Shown: positions 29,876 through 52,497 of the stretch, one piece after another
Layout of the letters: every line of letters begins with the position of its first letter
Position numbering within the stretch: the first letter of the stretch is position 1
NCBI GenBank assembly: GCA_964413725.1
Contig: CAYPUH010000001.1
Span: forward strand, 1 to 58,385
Length of the DNA: 58,385 nucleotides
Reading direction: 5' to 3'
Source: an uncultured Cytophagia bacterium
GTDB lineage: Bacteria; Zhuqueibacterota; Zhuqueibacteria; Residuimicrobiales; Oceaniaggregativiventaceae
Notes under the pieces: generated by a model
Databases searched by the model: none
What the model saw: only the letters and a program-made list of their open reading frames with translations
What the model was told of the DNA's origin: nothing
Position numbers and translations under genes: made by a program

Positions 29876-32800
29876 ATGTCTATTACACATAACAGTTCTA
29901 TACCCGGCCGTCCCCCCCGTCTGGGTCTTTACCATCCGGACTTTGAGCACGATGCCTGTGGTATCGGCTTTGTCGCCGACATCAAACAGGGGGCCTCGCA
30001 TGAGATGTTAGACCGGGCTGTGGACATTCTCGACCATCTCAAGCATCGCGGCGCGGTGGGCGGCGATACCGCTACCGGCGATGGCGCCGGTCTGATGATG
30101 CAGATCCCGGATGCCTTTTTCCGGTCTACTCTGGGAGCCGAGATGACGCTTCCTCCTGAGGGCCACTATGCGGTGGGGATGGTCTTCCTGCCCCAAGATG
30201 CCGAGCAGCGTCGGCGATGCCGTCAGCGCTGCGAAGAGGCCGTTACGGCTCAGGGCGGCGTGATCCTGGGATGGCGCCCGGTGCCGGTGCAGTCCGCCTG
30301 CCTGGGCGAGCTGGCTCGCTCCACCGAGCCGGTGATCGAACAACTGTTCATCGGTCGCGGCGAGATTCCAGCCCTTCGCCTGGAAAGCCGGCTCCTGGTG
30401 ATGCGTCGATGGATGGAAAAAGAGATCCGTGCTGAAGAGGATCCACAGGGCTATTTCTATGTCGCCAGTCTCTCCAGCCACAAGATCGTCTATAAAGGCC
30501 TGATGACCGGCGATCAGATCGCTACCTATTACCCGGATCTGAAACAACCCGAGTGTGCCAGTGCGTATGTGATGGTGCACCAGCGCTACAGCACCAACAC
30601 CTGGCCCACCTGGCCGCTGGCGCAGCCGTTCCGTTTTCTCGCCCATAACGGCGAGATCAACACCTTGCGCGCCAATATCAACCGGATGAAGTCCAGAGAA
30701 CCGCTGATGCAGTCCGACGTCTTTGACACGGACATGGAGACACTGCGTCCTATCATCCAGGAGGGCACCAGCGATTCTTCGGTTTTTGACAACGTCCTGG
30801 AGTTGCTGGTTCTCTCCGGACGCTCGTTGCCGCACGCGATGATGATGATGATCCCCGAGGCGCACGGTCCGCGCATTCCCATGAGTGCGGACAAGCGCGC
30901 CTTTTATGAATACCACTCGGCGTTGATGGAACCCTGGGACGGTCCGGCGGCGGTGACGTTTTGCGATGGCCGCTATATCGGTGCCACCCTGGACCGCAAC
31001 GGTCTGCGTCCGGCCCGCTATACCCTGACGCGCGACGGGTTGATCGTGCTGGCATCCGAGAGCGGTGTTCTCGATATCCCGGCAGACCGGATTCTCCGGC
31101 GGGGACGGTTGCAACCCGGAAAGATGTTTCTGGTGGATCTGGTGCAGCGGCGTGTGGTGCCGGATCAGGAGATAAAGTCGCGCATTGCCCGCCAGCGTCC
31201 CTACCGGCGCTGGATCCGGGAGAACCGCATCGAACTGAGGGGCCTGTTCGCCCCGTCCAAGAATCCGGCCTGTGACGAATCCGTGTTGATTCGTCTGCAG
31301 CATGTGTTTGGATACACGCGCGAAGAGATCCGCATGCTCATCACGCCCATGGCCTCACATGGCCAGGAGCCGGTGGGGTCCATGGGCAATGATGCCGCCC
31401 TGGCCGTGCTTTCTGATCGTCCACAACTTCTCTTTTCCTATTTCAAGCAGCGATTTGCCCAGGTGACCAATCCCCCCATCGATCCGTTGCGGGAAGAGCT
31501 GGTGATGTCTCTGGAGAGCTTTGTGGGCACCGAACAGAACATCCTTCGCGAAGACCCCGAATATTATCGCGGGCTCAAGCTGTCTCATCCCATCCTCACC
31601 CCGGCGGATATGGGACGGATTCGCGAGGCCGATCATCCCGAGATCATCACCCGAGATATCGACATGTTGTTTGCCGTTGAGGAGAACGGACGGAGCATCA
31701 AAGACGATTTACATCGTCTGTTCGAGCAGGCCGAAGCGGCCATAGATGAAGGCGTTACCATGGTGATTCTCAGTGATCAGAATCTGAACCGCAACCAGGC
31801 TCCCCTGCCGGTGCTCCTGGCCGCCTCGGGGTTGCATCAACATCTCATCCGTCGCGGCAAGCGAAACCGGGCCGGCATTATCGTCGAGACCGGTGAAGCC
31901 CGCGAGGTGATTCATTTTGCCCTGTTGATCGCCTATGGTGTGGATGCAATTTCTCCCTATCTTGCTTTTCATACCATCCACCATCTGGCCGAAACGGGCA
32001 TGCTCGCGCATCAGAACTCTCCTCATGTGGCGATGGACGCCTATATCACAGCCATCAAGAAAGGCGTCCTCAAAACCATGAGCCGGATGGGAATTTCCAC
32101 TCTGCACGGATTTTTCGGATCCCAGATTTTTGAAGCGGTGGGTGTCAATGAAGAGGTGGTAGAGACCTATTTTACCGGTACGCCCTCCCGTATCGGTGGC
32201 ATCGGTCTGGAAGAGATGGCTCGCGACGTGAGCCGGCGTCATCTGAACGGATTTCCCGATATGGGGTCACCGGATCCCTTGCTCGAGGCGGGGGGTGTGT
32301 ATCACATCCGTCGTGGCGGGGAGCATCACATGTGGACCACCGAGGCGATCCATCAGCTACAGACGGCGACGCGTCGTCAGGATTATGCCCAGTTCAAATC
32401 CTTTACCGCGCATATGAACGAGCACTCGACGTCACAGGCCACGCTGCGAGGGCTGATGCGAATCCGGGAGCGTCCGTCGATTCCTCTTGAGCGGGTGGAA
32501 CCGGAGGAGGTGATCACCTGCCGGTTTGTGACCGCCGCCATGTCGTTCGGCTCCATCAGCAAGGAGGCGCATGAGGCTCTGGCCATTGCCCTGAACCGGG
32601 TGGGGGGACGCAGCAATTCCGGTGAGGGAGGCGAAGATCCGGTGCGCTATCAGTCGTTGCCCAATGGCGACAGCAAGCGATCGCGCATCAAACAGATCGC
32701 CTCCGGCCGTTTTGGTGTGACCACAGAGTATCTCATGAACGCCGATGAGGTGCAGATCAAGATGGCACAGGGTGCCAAGCCCGGGGAGGGGGGACAGCTG

Positions 32801-34444
32801 CCGGGACACAAGGTGACGGCCGAGATCGCCCGGGTGCGCTATACCACGCCGGGGGTGACTCTGATCTCGCCGCCACCGCATCACGATATCTATTCCATCG
32901 AAGATCTGGCTCAGCTCATCTATGATCTCAAACAGGTCAATCCACGGGTCAACGTTTCGGTGAAACTGGTTTCCGAAGTGGGTGTGGGGACCATCGCCGC
33001 GGGCGTGGCCAAGGCCAATGCCGATCTGGTGTTGATCTCGGGTCACGATGGCGGCACCGGTGCCGCACCGTTGACATCAATCAAATATGCCGGATTGCCC
33101 TGGGAGCTGGGTCTGGCCGAAACACAGCAGACGTTGATTGCCAATCAGCTGCGGTCCCGGATCCGGGTGCAGGTAGACGGGCAGTTGAAAACCGGTCGCG
33201 ATCTGATCGTGGGCGCTTTGCTCGGGGCCGAGGAATTCGGGTTCGGCACCGCGGCTTTGGTCACGCTGGGATGTGTGATGATGCGCAAGTGTCATCTGAA
33301 CACCTGTCCGGTGGGTGTCGCCACGCAGGATGAACGACTGCGACGGCGTTTTTCCGGAACGCCAGAATATGTGGAATGCTATCTGCGATTTTTGGCCCGG
33401 GAGGTCCGGGAATGGCTGGCCGTGCTGGGCTTTGAACGTCTGGATGACCTCATCGGACGCACCGATCTGTTGGACATGTCGCCGGCGATTTCAGAGTGGA
33501 AAGACCGGCATCTCGATCTGCACCGAATCCTGGACGTCCCGGTGCCGGATGAGTCCCGCTACCGGCATCAGACCACCGAGGCGGTGGGGCATGATGTTGA
33601 TGCCCTGGATCATCATCTGATCGAACGATCCGCAGCGGCCCTGAACACAGGATTGCGCACCGAGATACAGATTCCCATTCGCAATGTGCACCGCACGGTG
33701 GGTGCCACACTGAGCGGTCAGTGGATCGAGCGGCACGGGGCCAACGGTCTGCCGGAGGATACGCTTACCGTCCGTTTCACGGGTTCGGCCGGTCAGAGCT
33801 TCGGGGCGTTTCTGGCGCGTGGCATGACCTTTCGATTGTCCGGCGACGCCAACGACACCGTGGGAAAAGGTCTGACCGGAGGGAAGCTGATCGTGGTTCC
33901 GCCCGAGAACGCCCGCTTTGATCCACAGGACAATGTGATCATCGGCAATGTGGCGCTCTATGGTGCCACCTCGGGAGAGCTCTATGTCAATGGTCTGGCT
34001 GGAGAACGGTTTGCGGTGCGAAACAGTGGTGCCCGGGCTGTAGTCGAGGGGGTGGGAGACCATGGCTGTGAATATATGACGGGCGGTGTGGTGGTGGTGC
34101 TGGGACCCACCGGAAATAACTTTGCCGCCGGTATGAGTGGCGGGATCGCTTATGTCTTTGATGAAACGGAACTCTTTGACACGCGATGCAATCTGGATAT
34201 GGTGGATCTGGAATTGGTCTGGAATGCGGAAGATCAGAAAGAGCTCAGGACATTGCTTCAGACCCATTGGGAATTAACCCACAGTCCGCGTGCCCGGATG
34301 ATACTGGATCGCTGGGAGGAGCTGTTGCCGCTGTTTGTCAAAGTGATGCCCATCGATTATCGTCGTTCGCTGGAACGTATGCGGCTGGAAGCGGAAGCGG
34401 ATCTGGAAACCGTCGCCGCCACCGAGGAGGTGTATCATGGCTAG
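29876..34444 (+). CDS. gltB: Glutamate synthase large subunit
   Basis: 1522 aa. It has the Ntn-amidotransferase start (HDACGIGFVA), the FMN/Fe-S central domain and the C-terminal GXGXG domain. Confidence 0.97.
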   Translation: MSITHNSSIPGRPPRLGLYHPDFEHDACGIGFVADIKQGASHEMLDRAVDILDHLKHRGAVGGDTATGDGAGLMMQIPDAFFRSTLGAEMTLPPEGHYAVGMVFLPQDAEQRRRCRQRCEEAVTAQGGVILGWRPVPVQSACLGELARSTEPVIEQLFIGRGEIPALRLESRLLVMRRWMEKEIRAEEDPQGYFYVASLSSHKIVYKGLMTGDQIATYYPDLKQPECASAYVMVHQRYSTNTWPTWPLAQPFRFLAHNGEINTLRANINRMKSREPLMQSDVFDTDMETLRPIIQEGTSDSSVFDNVLELLVLSGRSLPHAMMMMIPEAHGPRIPMSADKRAFYEYHSALMEPWDGPAAVTFCDGRYIGATLDRNGLRPARYTLTRDGLIVLASESGVLDIPADRILRRGRLQPGKMFLVDLVQRRVVPDQEIKSRIARQRPYRRWIRENRIELRGLFAPSKNPACDESVLIRLQHVFGYTREEIRMLITPMASHGQEPVGSMGNDAALAVLSDRPQLLFSYFKQRFAQVTNPPIDPLREELVMSLESFVGTEQNILREDPEYYRGLKLSHPILTPADMGRIREADHPEIITRDIDMLFAVEENGRSIKDDLHRLFEQAEAAIDEGVTMVILSDQNLNRNQAPLPVLLAASGLHQHLIRRGKRNRAGIIVETGEAREVIHFALLIAYGVDAISPYLAFHTIHHLAETGMLAHQNSPHVAMDAYITAIKKGVLKTMSRMGISTLHGFFGSQIFEAVGVNEEVVETYFTGTPSRIGGIGLEEMARDVSRRHLNGFPDMGSPDPLLEAGGVYHIRRGGEHHMWTTEAIHQLQTATRRQDYAQFKSFTAHMNEHSTSQATLRGLMRIRERPSIPLERVEPEEVITCRFVTAAMSFGSISKEAHEALAIALNRVGGRSNSGEGGEDPVRYQSLPNGDSKRSRIKQIASGRFGVTTEYLMNADEVQIKMAQGAKPGEGGQLPGHKVTAEIARVRYTTPGVTLISPPPHHDIYSIEDLAQLIYDLKQVNPRVNVSVKLVSEVGVGTIAAGVAKANADLVLISGHDGGTGAAPLTSIKYAGLPWELGLAETQQTLIANQLRSRIRVQVDGQLKTGRDLIVGALLGAEEFGFGTAALVTLGCVMMRKCHLNTCPVGVATQDERLRRRFSGTPEYVECYLRFLAREVREWLAVLGFERLDDLIGRTDLLDMSPAISEWKDRHLDLHRILDVPVPDESRYRHQTTEAVGHDVDALDHHLIERSAAALNTGLRTEIQIPIRNVHRTVGATLSGQWIERHGANGLPEDTLTVRFTGSAGQSFGAFLARGMTFRLSGDANDTVGKGLTGGKLIVVPPENARFDPQDNVIIGNVALYGATSGELYVNGLAGERFAVRNSGARAVVEGVGDHGCEYMTGGVVVVLGPTGNNFAAGMSGGIAYVFDETELFDTRCNLDMVDLELVWNAEDQKELRTLLQTHWELTHSPRARMILDRWEELLPLFVKVMPIDYRRSLERMRLEAEADLETVAATEEVYHG

Positions 34445-49933: not shown

Positions 49934-49960
49934 CGGGAGATCCGGAATCCGGATCTCCCG
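49934..49960 (-). terminator. 12-bp perfect hairpin after trpB2 (CGGGAGATCCGG-aat-CCGGATCTCCCG)
   Basis: It lies 27 nt downstream of the trpB2 stop. The trailing sequence on the minus strand (AUUCUUCCCCUUA) is only moderately U-rich. Confidence 0.55.
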
Positions 49961-49986: not shown

Positions 49987-51357
49987 CTATTCCGGTTTGG
50001 GAAGTGAATCCATAACAGCCAGAGAGCGTTTGATCTCATCCTCCGGAAGCGGATAATTGTCCAGTTTTCCCTGAAAATAGGCATCGTATCCGGTGAGGTC
50101 CATGAGACCGTGGCCGCTCCAGTTAAAGATGATGACTTTTTCTTTGCCTTCCTCTTTGGCTTTGTTGGCCTCATCGATGGTTGCGGCAATGGCATGGCTG
50201 GTTTCCGGTGCCGGGATAAACCCTTCGGTGCGGGCCCAAAGGACAGCGGCACTGTAACAATCCAATTGATCATAGGCTCTGGGCGCCATAAGACCTTCCC
50301 GAACGGCATGGCTGACAAGAGGAGACATGCCGTGATACCTCAGACCGCCTGCATGGATCGGTGGGGGAACAAACTTGTGTCCGAGTGAATACATGGGCAT
50401 TAGAGGGGTGGTCTCGGCGTTGTCACCAAAATCATAGGCAAAGGGAGCCCGTGTCAGGGTGGGACAGGCCGACGGTTCGGCGGGAATGATTTCGATGGCG
50501 TCTCCGTGAATTTTGTCGCGAACAAACGGGAACGCCAGCCCGGCAAAGTTGCTTCCTCCTCCGGCGCATCCGATCACCACATCTGCCTGTTTTTCACCGG
50601 CCACTTTGAGTTGTTCCTGAGCTTCCTGACCGATGACCGTCTGATGCAGCATCACATGATTGAGCACGCTGCCGAGAGAATAGCGTGTTTTTCCGCTTGA
50701 ATCTCCCACCGCAGCTTCTATAGCCTCACTGATGGCGATACCGAGGCTGCCGGGCGTTTCGGGTGATTCCTTGAGAATAGCACGCCCCACCTCGGTATCT
50801 TCACTGGGACTGGGTACGCATTTTCCACCCCAGGTTTCCATCATGAGTCGACGAAACGGTTTCTGGTCGAAACTGATTCGAACCATGTAGACTTTACACT
50901 CCAACCCCAGCAGCGCGCAGGCAAAACTGAGAGCGCTGCCCCACTGACCGGCGCCTGTCTCAGTGGTGATCCGTTCAATTCCGAATTCCTTATTGTAATA
51001 GGCTTGTGCCACAGCGGTATTGGGTTTGTGGCTGCCCGGAGGACTCACCCCCTCATTTTTATAATAGATACGGGCCGGTGTTCCCAGCGCCTCCTCCAGT
51101 CGGTGAGCCCGATACAGGGGAGACGGTCGCCAGAGGCTGTAGATTTCCAGAATTTTTTCCGGTATCTGAATCCATCTCTCGGTACTGACTTCCTGTTCGA
51201 TGAGATTCATGGGGAAAACCGGGGCCAGCATGTCCGGTGAGACAGGCTGGCCATCCGGCCCCAGAGGGGGAAGAGGTGGCGTCGGTAGATCTGCTGCCAG
51301 ATTGTACCATTGTTTGGGAATAGAGTTTTCATCCAGTGTAATTTTGGTCGGTTCCAT
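49987..51357 (-). CDS. trpB: TrpB2-type (long form) tryptophan synthase beta-like PLP enzyme
   Basis: I chose the start at [19 protein letters not shown] because GGAGGA lies upstream. It has the PLP-lysine region GSHKPNTA and the N-terminal extension and length typical of TrpB2 rather than TrpB1. No other trp genes are in the window. Confidence 0.9.
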
Positions 51358-51380
51358 GACGCATCCTCCGTTGTTAGAGT

Positions 51381-51417
51381 AAAAAAAAAGCCCGCCACGA
51401 GAAATCACGTAGCGGGC
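51381..51417 (-). terminator. Attenuator terminator in the trpB2 leader
   Basis: The minus strand reads GCCCGC-U-ACG-ugauuucu-CGU-G-GCGGGC followed by nine U. It ends 23 nt before the trpB2 ATG. Confidence 0.85.
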
Positions 51418-51452
51418 AGTATTGGTTTCATACTATCAATGGCGGTTAAGCC

Positions 51453-51548
51453 TTATGGCACTCCACTCCCACTACGTCGGGACACAGTCCACCACCAGCC
51501 CCACCAGAGGGTCCAGAGAAGGTTCGACATTGTGGTCAGAGTACGCAT
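51453..51548 (-). CDS. trpL: Trp-rich leader peptide (31 aa) of the trpB2 attenuator
   Basis: I translated it codon by codon: MRTLTTMSNLLWTLWWGWWWTVSRRSGSGVP*. It has six TGG codons, including WW-G-WWW. It is too short for the supplied ORF track. Confidence 0.75.
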   Translation of the reverse strand: MRTLTTMSNLLWTLWWGWWWTVSRRSGSGVP

Positions 51549-51619
51549 TTTTAATTCTGTCCCTTAATCGTTAAGAAAAGAAACCGTTTGTTCCAAAGAA
51601 AAAATCTTGTGGCCATTGA

Positions 51620-51648
51620 AATATATAAAAAATTCAACAGGCTGTCAA
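51620..51648 (-). promoter_or_regulatory. Sigma-70-like promoter TTGACA-17 nt-TATATT for the trpB2 leader
   Basis: On the minus strand the -35 TTGACA lies at 51648-51643 and the -10 TATATT at 51625-51620, with an exact 17-nt spacer. This is about 70 nt upstream of the leader-peptide ATG. Confidence 0.65.
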
Positions 51649-51882
51649 GTGATTTGATAAAAAAAAGGGAATCCACTCTTGTCGAAAATACCTTTTTGCA
51701 CCAACAATGCCGAGACCGATTATATGTTCGGCGAACCCGTCACGGTATGGGATGAATGTAGCCAGGAGGCCCATTATCGGTACCACCCGGATCCGAAGCA
51801 AAGCCATTCGATATGGCTACAAGGAGAGTCCGGAACGCGAGGTGATCATTACCGTGCCGTCCTGAACCGGAATCCATTGGCC

Positions 51883-52497
51883 TCAAAAGGATGACCCTGT
51901 GTTGATTCGGGGAGGGTGATTGTCTTCCCAGGTTTTGATATCCTCCATGTATTCCAGTAAACACCCCAAGGGATCCAGTCCTTTGATCAGGCACCTTTTG
52001 TTAAACGGATCGATATCAAAGGAGACAGATCGATCTGTTCTCCAGGATAGGGTCTGAGCCTGCACATCCACATGCCATGGAGAGTCGGGGGCGTTCTGGA
52101 TTGTGGACAGCAAATCCTGATGGACATCTGCGGGAACGACGATGGGAAGAAGACCGTTTTTCAGAGAATTGTTATTAAAGATATCGGCAAAGCTTGTGCT
52201 CACGATGACGCGAAAGCCATAGGCCAGGAGGGCCCAGGGGGCATGTTCCCGGCTGGATCCACAGCCAAAGTTGTCGCCGGCCAGAAGAAACGTTGCATCT
52301 CGGCTTTCCGGCCGATTGAGAATGAAATCGGATCGTTGTTCGCCCGCCTCGTTGGTGCGCCAGTCGTAAAACAAACCGTCGCGCAGTCCGTGTTTGTCGG
52401 TCACCTTTAGAAACCGGGCGGGTATGATCTGATCGGTATCGATATCATTCACCGGCAATGCCACGGCGATTCCTGTTAGATGTTGTAATGGCTCCAT
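51883..52497 (-). CDS. leuD: 3-isopropylmalate dehydratase small subunit
   Basis: I chose the start at MEPLQHLTG. The motifs DTDQIIPARFL and GDNFGCGSSREHAPWAL are present. Confidence 0.93.
   Translation of the reverse strand: MEPLQHLTGIAVALPVNDIDTDQIIPARFLKVTDKHGLRDGLFYDWRTNEAGEQRSDFILNRPESRDATFLLAGDNFGCGSSREHAPWALLAYGFRVIVSTSFADIFNNNSLKNGLLPIVVPADVHQDLLSTIQNAPDSPWHVDVQAQTLSWRTDRSVSFDIDPFNKRCLIKGLDPLGCLLEYMEDIKTWEDNHPPRINTGSSF

Follow-up and report, generated by a model that had tools for sequence, protein, structure and literature searches.

The trpB2 gene on the minus strand of contig CAYPUH010000001.1 (assembly GCA_964413725.1, from an uncultured bacterium) is preceded by a leader that is very probably, at roughly 85%, a four-segment ribosome-mediated transcription attenuator sensing charged tRNA-Trp. 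The stretch analysed, positions 1 to 58,385 of that contig, is referred to as the window. Our reading of the leader rests on comparison with related loci and on modelled RNA folds. An initial annotation of this DNA had proposed a ribosome-mediated tryptophan (Trp) attenuator upstream of trpB2, and conservation, covariation and folding of truncated transcripts all support that proposal. The promoter, the 31-codon open reading frame (ORF), the terminator and the antiterminator strands described there were each found at the minus-strand coordinates given for them, and reading of the ORF confirmed its six TGG codons and the grouping of five of these in a run of six codons. The Escherichia coli trpL-like architecture that had been invoked is matched in its logic, and the elements named there are joined by one more that had been missed, a predicted anti-antiterminator in the 5' part of the ORF. 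The elements are as follows.

51620..51648, minus strand: sigma-70-type promoter, with TTGACA at 51648-51643, 17 nucleotides (nt), and TATATT at 51625-51620
51453..51548, minus strand: leader ORF of 31 codons plus stop, with an ATG start and its own upstream promoter, product MRTLTTMSNLLWTLWWGWWWTVSRRSGSGVP
51525..51542, minus strand: segment 1, the predicted anti-antiterminator ACUCUGACCACAAUGUCG, ORF nt 7-24, which pairs with segment 2
51489..51515, minus strand: regulatory Trp codons, with the main run WWGWWW at 51506-51489
51468..51477, minus strand: segment 2, the antiterminator 5' strand ACGUAGUGGG, leader codons 24-27
51381..51417, minus strand: intrinsic terminator, made of segments 3 and 4 with an 8-nt loop and a U9 tract
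49987..51357, minus strand: trpB2, 456 amino acids (aa), with ATG at 51357 and the Shine-Dalgarno (SD) sequence GGAGGA at 51369-51364

Promoter and terminator consensus sites were scanned in a 7-kb stretch of the window around the trpB2 leader. The leader promoter agrees with the consensus at 11 of 12 positions and was the top-ranked promoter site in the scan; transcription is predicted to start at about 51613. About 70 nt of A/U-rich sequence lie between the promoter and the ORF, and an SD-like AAGGGA is present at 51565-51560. The TGG codons of the leader are codons 12, 15, 16, 18, 19 and 20, so that five fall within codons 15-20, and six TGG per nine codons is the densest such cluster on both strands of the 58-kb window. 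By chance, about 0.04 codon windows with at least five TGG are expected, and none of 100 shuffles (0/100) reached six. Five TGG in nine codons were found elsewhere in the window only at about 34077-34220 (plus strand), in one frame, inside a 1522-aa ORF at 29876-34444. Segment 2 is complementary to CCCGCUACGU (51416-51407) over 10 base pairs (bp), one of which is G-U. A spacer of 35 nt separates the leader stop codon from the terminator, in which segment 3 is GCCCGCUACG (51417-51408), segment 4 is CGUGGCGGGC (51399-51390) and the U9 tract occupies 51389-51381. The terminator stem of 10 bp contains eight GC pairs, and no terminator-like site of the 7-kb scan is stronger. The gene behind it scores 725 bits with NF009057 (cut-off 366) and 637 bits with TIGR01415 (cut-off 519), and 154 bits with the canonical trpB model TIGR00263, under the cut-off of 392. 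By these profiles, the trpB2 product is a TrpB-like, pyridoxal phosphate (PLP)-dependent enzyme of the TrpB2 type, distinct from canonical TrpB1.

From this layout we infer that the leader ORF is translated, that transcription terminates in vivo and that the outcome responds to Trp. Transcription would begin at the strong dedicated promoter, and a ribosome would translate the 31-codon leader. When Trp is scarce, the ribosome would stall on the WWGWWW codons with its leading edge just short of segment 2, ACGUAGUGGG, which in the window starts 12 nt after the last Trp codon. The stalled ribosome would sit inside the segment 1:2 hairpin and block it, leaving segment 2 free to pair with the emerging 5' arm of the terminator. 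The terminator could then not form, and RNA polymerase would read into trpB2 and probably also into a small Cys-rich ORF that follows it. When Trp is plentiful, the ribosome would reach the stop codon, 12 nt past segment 2, and cover the GGG end of that segment; behind the ribosome, segment 1 could re-pair with segment 2. The terminator hairpin with its U9 tract would then form, and transcription would end at about 51381.

Fourteen relatives were picked solely by TrpB2 similarity (78-97% identity), with L001, L002, L003 and L006 taken from a reference-genome scan and L163-L172 from contig look-ups of top protein matches. The W-rich mini-ORF plus terminator, which the initial annotation had suggested looking for upstream of trpB2 orthologues, was present in all 14, and the entire architecture directly upstream of trpB2 (promoter, W-rich ORF, CGUAGUGGG block and terminator) is the same in each. 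Across the 15 aligned loci, i.e., the window and its 14 relatives, the promoter hexamers are near-consensus (mostly TTGACA and TATATT) and 16-17 nt apart in every case. The ATG-initiated mini-ORF has the same position and frame in 14/14 relatives, with the core WWGWWW or a close variant, and the number of TGG codons is three to six in all 15 leaders. TGGTGGGGCTGGTGGTGG is nearly invariant across the leader alignment, as is the nucleotide block CGUAGUGGG, which starts 12 nt past the last Trp codon in 11/15 leaders and 15-18 nt past it in the remaining four. Terminators of the relatives read (G/A)CCCGCU(A/G)CG, loop, CG(Y)AGCGGG(C/U), followed by four to nine U. Apart from the W run and the block encoding RSG, the leader peptide is conserved neither in sequence nor in length, and the spacer from the stop codon to the terminator is likewise unconserved. 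The upstream neighbour of the leader-trpB2 unit also varies, being leuD in the window and in L163, a divergent HAD-IA hydrolase in most of the others, and trpB1 in L171. Because the leader is kept while the neighbour changes, leader and trpB2 travel together as a unit of their own.

The closest TrpB2 proteins (80-97% identity) come from metagenome-assembled genomes (MAGs) labelled candidate division KSB1 or Calditrichaeota, along with a few inconsistent labels, and the host is on that account placed as a non-proteobacterial member of the Fibrobacteres-Chlorobi-Bacteroidetes (FCB) superphylum. The impression given in the initial annotation that the genome is non-proteobacterial was thus borne out, the closest genomes being KSB1-type and similar MAGs. 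An identical TrpB2 protein is encoded by a contig in assembly GCA_054922275.1 and by one in Logan. A metagenome scan with TrpB2 returned mostly distant lineages; its best match, L083, is from a high-GC organism, and no Trp leader was found upstream of trpB2 there.

Covariation was assessed on the 15-sequence leader alignment with 500 column shuffles. Both the proposed antiterminator helix and the terminator helix covary. In the terminator helix 91.3% of cells are paired and five of ten pairs have changed on both sides; in the antiterminator helix (51477-51468 with 51416-51407) 94.0% are paired and four pairs have changed on both sides. The observed covariation score was reached by none of the 500 shuffles for either helix. 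When the antiterminator registers were slid by one to three columns, 27-57% of cells paired, and no slid register of either helix exceeded 57%. Individual leaders illustrate the pattern. In L170, the three strands read CACAGUGGG, CCCGCUGUG and CACAGCGGG, and in L002 a C-G pair is replaced by A-U. In L165, L168 and L172 the arm has changed from A to G, retaining a U-G wobble with segment 2 while gaining a G-C or G-U pair in the terminator. Where the opening codon of the conserved block has changed from Arg to His or Ser, the pairing still holds, so that selection acts on the RNA rather than on the peptide.

The putative anti-antiterminator was identified from folds of the pre-terminator transcript. 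Pairing of segment 1 (ORF nt ~6-27) with segment 2 occurs in the minimum free energy (MFE) fold in 14 of the 15 leaders, giving a long hairpin whose apical part holds the Trp codons. In every leader (15/15) the segment 1:2 duplex is better than the mean for dinucleotide shuffles of the upstream stretch; individual p values run from 0.002 to 0.28, and Fisher's combined p is 4e-9, the sequences not being independent of one another. With a conserved 1:2 pairing acting as anti-antiterminator, the element would have all four classical segments. Another pairing in the initial annotation, between UGGUGG in the Trp codons and CCGCCA, fared less well. It does form in the window's own fold, but the CCGCCA, which had been put at about 51442-51437 and actually lies at 51445-51440, is CCUCCA in the 97%-identical L163 and is unconserved elsewhere.

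Ribosome position was then considered in the folding. In the window, the computed energies are -19.6 kcal/mol for the terminator hairpin, -18.6 kcal/mol for the antiterminator duplex and -13.2 kcal/mol for segment 1. Since the terminator wins at equilibrium, the switch would have to be kinetic and co-transcriptional. Equilibrium folding of full-length RNA did not discriminate between ribosome positions and was therefore replaced by folding of transcripts cut before the terminator 3' arm, with ribosome footprints masked, from which the probability of the antiterminator, P(antiterminator), was computed. With any of the six Trp codons of the window leader in the A site, P(antiterminator) was 0.93-1.00; with the ribosome at the stop codon, it was 0.03. 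In all 15 leaders of the clade, P(antiterminator) was 0.75 or higher when the stalled ribosome was followed by a second, queued one (a disome); with the ribosome at the stop codon, it was 0.25 or less in 11/15. In this co-transcriptional model, the antiterminator thus competes with the terminator in a manner that depends on where the ribosome is. The geometry can be followed on the sequence. Toeprinting puts the leading edge of the ribosome at about +15 relative to the first base in the P site. A ribosome holding Trp codon 20 in its A site would extend to about ORF nt 70, with segment 2 beginning at nt 72. In 11/15 leaders the distance from segment 2 to the leader stop codon is 6-15 nt, so that a ribosome terminating there would, in the model, lie over the GGG end of the segment.

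Several points weigh against an attenuator of this kind. The SD-like sequence of the leader ORF is weak and lies 11 nt from the AUG. In full-length RNA at equilibrium, the terminator is favoured whether or not a ribosome footprint is masked, and wherever it lies (in L166, the same kind of folding gave the antiterminator). E. coli trpL likewise has a terminator that is more stable at equilibrium, the decision being kinetic. Because trpL behaves alike, the dominance of the terminator is not the refutation that the initial annotation had named, an antiterminator not competitive with the terminator. The truncated window transcript without a ribosome already has a P(antiterminator) of 0.93, which suggests that segment 1 is thermodynamically weak in the window and makes its role less certain than those of segments 2-4. 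In four of the 15 leaders the stop codon is 18-24 nt past segment 2, too distant for a terminating ribosome to mask it, and these four relatives must rely on helix 1:2 forming first. Finally, the 15 sequences represent about ten lineages of one clade, and the covariation counts therefore rest on few independent events.

Among the other explanations, the one that survives best, though we think it very unlikely, is that the mini-ORF encodes a functional Trp-rich peptide, or that the terminated leader is a trans-acting small RNA (sRNA), with the terminator just closing off that small gene and trpB2 not under its control. There is precedent in Sinorhizobium, where trans functions of the leader transcript rnTrpL and the leader peptide peTrpL are documented (PMC7298713, PMC7968998). 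A short transcript from a promoter as strong as this one would be abundant, and a hydrophobic, W-rich peptide could insert into the membrane. A peptide acting on its own account is, however, hard to reconcile with the lack of conservation beyond the W run and the RSG-coding block, and the block that is conserved is constrained at the RNA level, covarying with the terminator arm. Nor was a second promoter detected in the 23 nt from the U tract to the trpB2 start, and the element is always directly upstream of trpB2 even though the neighbours change. A trans role of the terminated leader may exist on top of cis attenuation.

Less probable still is a TnaC-like sensor, in which arrest of the nascent peptide by free Trp would induce trpB2 at high Trp, a polarity opposite to that of the attenuator; if true, it would point to a degradative or other role for TrpB2. 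The window leader does contain Trp and ends in Pro-stop as TnaC does, but the Pro-stop and the C-terminal residues are not conserved, the relatives ending in MR, CA, LD, KY, MF and others. The leaders have instead three to six Trp codons at a near-constant distance from a strand that covaries with a terminator arm, which is the signature of hungry-codon sensing. TnaC control acts through Rho rather than through an intrinsic terminator/antiterminator pair such as the one found here.

We give a similarly slight chance to an attenuator RNA that binds a ligand or a protein (a riboswitch, a T-box, a TRAP-like element or the Rfam trpB motif), with Trp codons that are there by coincidence. What might suggest it is a weak match to RF04312, the trpB motif, in cmscan (25.2 bits, E 0.31). 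That match is far under the gathering score of 59 and lies mostly over the terminator, and its alignment gives a P1 stem with non-canonical pairs; RF04312 was rejected as the family of this leader. No T-box or other such family was found at gathering thresholds, nor among the seven leader-region matches at E<=10. The spacer between ORF and terminator is neither conserved nor structured, leaving no room for an aptamer, and the in-frame W run with its AUG is kept in 15/15 loci. In addition, W-rich mini-ORFs occur in 33/146 regions upstream of trpB2 genes versus 1-3/146 for control regions. The last and least credible alternative, a chance ORF beside an ordinary terminator of the upstream ilvD-ilvB-leuCD operon, draws on the leuD stop lying about 235 nt before the promoter with no terminator detected between them, but read-through from leuD, while it may add transcripts, does not explain the element, and given a TGG cluster beyond chance, a promoter conserved across the aligned loci, and a whole leader kept in relatives with a divergent or different upstream gene (HAD hydrolase, trpB1), the comparative sequence data already exclude it as the sole explanation.

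Leader-peptide attenuation is textbook biology for Proteobacteria, and predictions of it exist for Actinobacteria and Bacteroidetes. The trpB2 leader is thus a known kind of regulator, and the mechanism itself is no surprise to a specialist. What it adds is a well-resolved, covariation-supported probable attenuator in an uncultivated FCB-group lineage (labelled KSB1 and similar), its Trp run being unusually heavy and its geometry slightly different. Like the E. coli-type trpL leader (RF00513), it has a short ORF in which Trp codons cluster, helices 1:2, 2:3 and 3:4 that exclude one another, an intrinsic terminator with a U tract, and, in the model, a kinetic decision set by ribosome position, the terminator being the stabler fold. 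Unlike trpL, it has five to six Trp codons rather than two, and these are placed in the 1:2 hairpin loop and not in segment 1 itself. Segment 2 is inside the ORF, upstream of the stop codon, so that a terminating ribosome would mask segment 2 from its 3' side. The target also differs, being a stand-alone trpB2 in an FCB-group MAG instead of trpEDCBA. There is no sequence or covariance-model similarity between the two: RF00513 gave no match at its gathering score in the window and was absent among the seven matches at E<=10 in 51300-51900.

Other searches of RNA families gave the same picture. No Rfam family matched the window at gathering scores, and none matched 20 related loci. The T-box family RF00230 was found neither in the window nor by permissive scanning of the leader region. 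RF01692, Bacteroid-trp, matched neither the window nor the 20 related loci, Bacteroidales included, and was also unmatched in a permissive scan of a Bacteroides-type leader. RF01692 and RF04312 are cis-regulatory motifs with terminators, tied to tryptophan genes (PMC2864571, PMC11109978), and in these general respects resemble the trpB2 leader; RF04312 is a riboswitch candidate of Firmicutes and Fusobacteria, sometimes found upstream of trpB (PMC11109978). Trp-specific T-box leaders also read tRNA-Trp charging, by a different mechanism, and the TrpR repressor is a functional analogue that likewise differs in mechanism. Similar features are found in predicted actinobacterial trp attenuators (Seliverstov et al. 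2005, PMC1262725). Their predicted leader peptides contain runs of UGG, their terminators are GC-rich and end in U tracts, and antiterminator and terminator share three conserved complementary blocks; in C. diphtheriae, one of these attenuators precedes an operon named trpB2A. The triple-block logic is matched in the KSB1-type leaders by CGUAGUGGG, CCCGCUACG and CGYAGCGGG, but phylum and sequences are different, and the trpB2 of that study is a second trpB copy linked to trpA, not a stand-alone NF009057-type TrpB2. Our literature search for a leader of a stand-alone trpB2 found nothing specific. A covariance model of the conserved leader core, R1, was run on the window and 156 other loci. It found one site in the window, at 109 bits, and no second one; leaders of other lineages (Bacteroidota type) matched weakly, at 15-21 bits. 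By these scans, the leader belongs to no curated RNA family even though its mechanism is classical.

The physiological role of TrpB2 has been argued over for two decades, with indole salvage, O-phosphoserine-dependent Trp synthesis and something else as the candidates. The reasoning offered by the trpB2 leader is simple: a gene wired for transcription only when charging of tRNA-Trp falls would be used to make tryptophan. We looked for Trp-linked control of trpB2 more widely with a calibrated scan for Trp mini-ORFs at 146 trpB2 loci having at least 400 nt on both sides, using three control regions. Sense-strand Trp-rich mini-ORFs were found upstream of trpB2 at 33 of the 146 loci and at one to three per control region. 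A Bacteroidota-type leader is characterized by WRWRWW...(N/D)ASW and by an in-ORF strand, AUGCUUCGUG, complementary to the terminator 5' arm CACGGGGCAU, followed by a hairpin and U8; the terminator reads CACGGGGCAUG...CCCCGU8. This type resembles the KSB1-type leader in preceding an orthologous stand-alone trpB2 and in having Trp codons, an in-ORF antiterminator strand and a hairpin with U8. It differs in sequence, as the R1 scores of 15-21 bits versus 109 in the window indicate, and the small Cys-rich ORF was not detected downstream of Bacteroidota-type loci. A third leader type upstream of trpB2 is a short WWW type. Rfam Bacteroid-trp matches none of these other Trp leaders, which look, from their sequences, like undescribed attenuator families. 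Non-KSB1 Trp leaders stand about 100-200 nt before trpB2 at L013, L015, L030, L032, L054, L092, L094, L098 and L103, and more loci with other Trp leader types are L023, L074, L099 and L124, together with L078, L137 and L147.

A second form of Trp-linked control is suggested by a TrpR-family gene (PF01371, ~88 aa) directly upstream of trpB2 on the same strand, about 40-300 nt away, at 27 loci. These loci belong to Spirochaetota, Planctomycetota, Acidobacteriota, Calditrichota, Verrucomicrobiota and other phyla; the TrpR-family gene is at 1160-1426 in L173 and at 1217-1426 in L174, and other such loci include L019, L020, L021, L022, L025, L028, L031, L037, L044, L045, L048 and more. A Trp leader and a TrpR-like gene were never found together, there being no overlap between 37 leader loci and 27 TrpR loci. 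From these gene neighbourhoods and leaders, stand-alone trpB2 thus appears to have been placed repeatedly under tryptophan-linked control. That recurrence in other phyla, through different Trp leaders and TrpR-family neighbours, gives extra support to the suggestion in the initial annotation that TrpB2 serves Trp supply. Such a role fits the indole-salvage or O-phosphoserine-dependent activity proposed for TrpB2 enzymes, as cited in PMC11917138. Taken together, the Trp leaders in Bacteroidota, the TrpR-family neighbours in many other phyla and the additional canonical trpB1 of one KSB1-type relative point to a regulated back-up or salvage function for TrpB2. The value of the trpB2 leader is raised by this evidence on the role of TrpB2, by the recurrence of independent Trp-linked controls and by an unannotated putative partner protein, and the leader offers a simple experimental handle on TrpB2 regulation.

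The initial annotation had the regulated unit as a single trpB2 gene rather than a trpEDCBA operon. The second part stands, but the unit probably also includes a conserved small Cys-rich ORF. Two features follow trpB2 in the window.

49934..49960, minus strand: perfect 12-bp stem-loop, CGGGAGAUCCGG AUU CCGGAUCUCCCG, 27 nt past the trpB2 stop codon
49569..49850, minus strand: small Cys-rich ORF of 93 aa, motif CPMLGH..F.YCR...C.KI.DCW

The order downstream of trpB2 is the small Cys-rich ORF and then convergent genes. The stem-loop (49960-49934) is GC-rich and has no U tract, and the fold of the 151-nt stretch around it has a z-score of -4.5. It might stabilise the RNA, serve as a processing site or terminate transcription weakly. 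The small ORF directly follows trpB2 on the same strand at 63 of 172 loci in many phyla, for example at 4009-4311 in L163, 3952-4218 in L167 and 3001-3285 in L173, and because this adjacency is conserved, the ORF is probably co-transcribed with trpB2. An exhaustive search gave a family of 440 cluster representatives with the motif RCPxLGHxIPFSYCR...PCxKILDCW, in the alignments of which Cys18, His23, Cys30, Cys39 and Cys45 are invariant. No Pfam or NCBIfam model matched the small protein, and a structural model of it (predicted local distance difference test score, pLDDT, 76) matched no PDB fold. A reciprocal look-up from a 40%-identical member led back to a locus with the order TrpR-like gene, trpB2, small ORF.

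A tentative extension, which we hold to be possible but doubtful, is that the Trp-starvation unit is a two-gene module of trpB2 and this unannotated Cys-rich protein of about 90 aa, the latter a functional partner of TrpB2. The pair would then be under at least three independent Trp-linked controls, namely KSB1-type leaders, short WWW leaders or an adjacent TrpR-family gene. The small protein could be a metal-binding subunit, or a substrate-delivery or regulation factor standing in for TrpA. If true, the module would be a dedicated starvation-induced route to Trp, by indole salvage or by O-phosphoserine-dependent synthesis, and the small protein would be a new candidate for biochemistry with TrpB2.

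Upstream of the leader, the same-strand genes in the window are ilvD, ilvB, leuC and leuD. No minus-strand terminator was detected between the leuD stop and the leader promoter (51650-51883), so that read-through from ilvD-ilvB-leuCD into the trpB2 leader is possible. No trpB1, TrpR-like gene or other trp gene was detected in the window. In the relative L171, a canonical trpB1 (TIGR00263, 537 bits) and then a HAD-type hydrolase are divergent from the leader-trpB2 unit, at 799-2001 and 1-740, respectively, both on the minus strand. The promoter of this trpB1 is TTGACA-17-TATATT, and no Trp leader was found upstream of it.

In most KSB1-type loci, the conserved gene divergent from the leader-trpB2 unit encodes a HAD-IA hydrolase of about 255-275 aa. 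It lies on the minus strand at 891-1715 in L164, 1277-2047 in L166, 815-1609 in L167, 1365-2126 in L168, 1151-1918 in L169, 1252-2013 in L170 and 1367-2128 in L172. The match in these relatives is a generic one to HAD-IA, with no assignment as a phosphoserine phosphatase. A phosphatase neighbour may matter, TrpB2 enzymes being reported users of O-phosphoserine.

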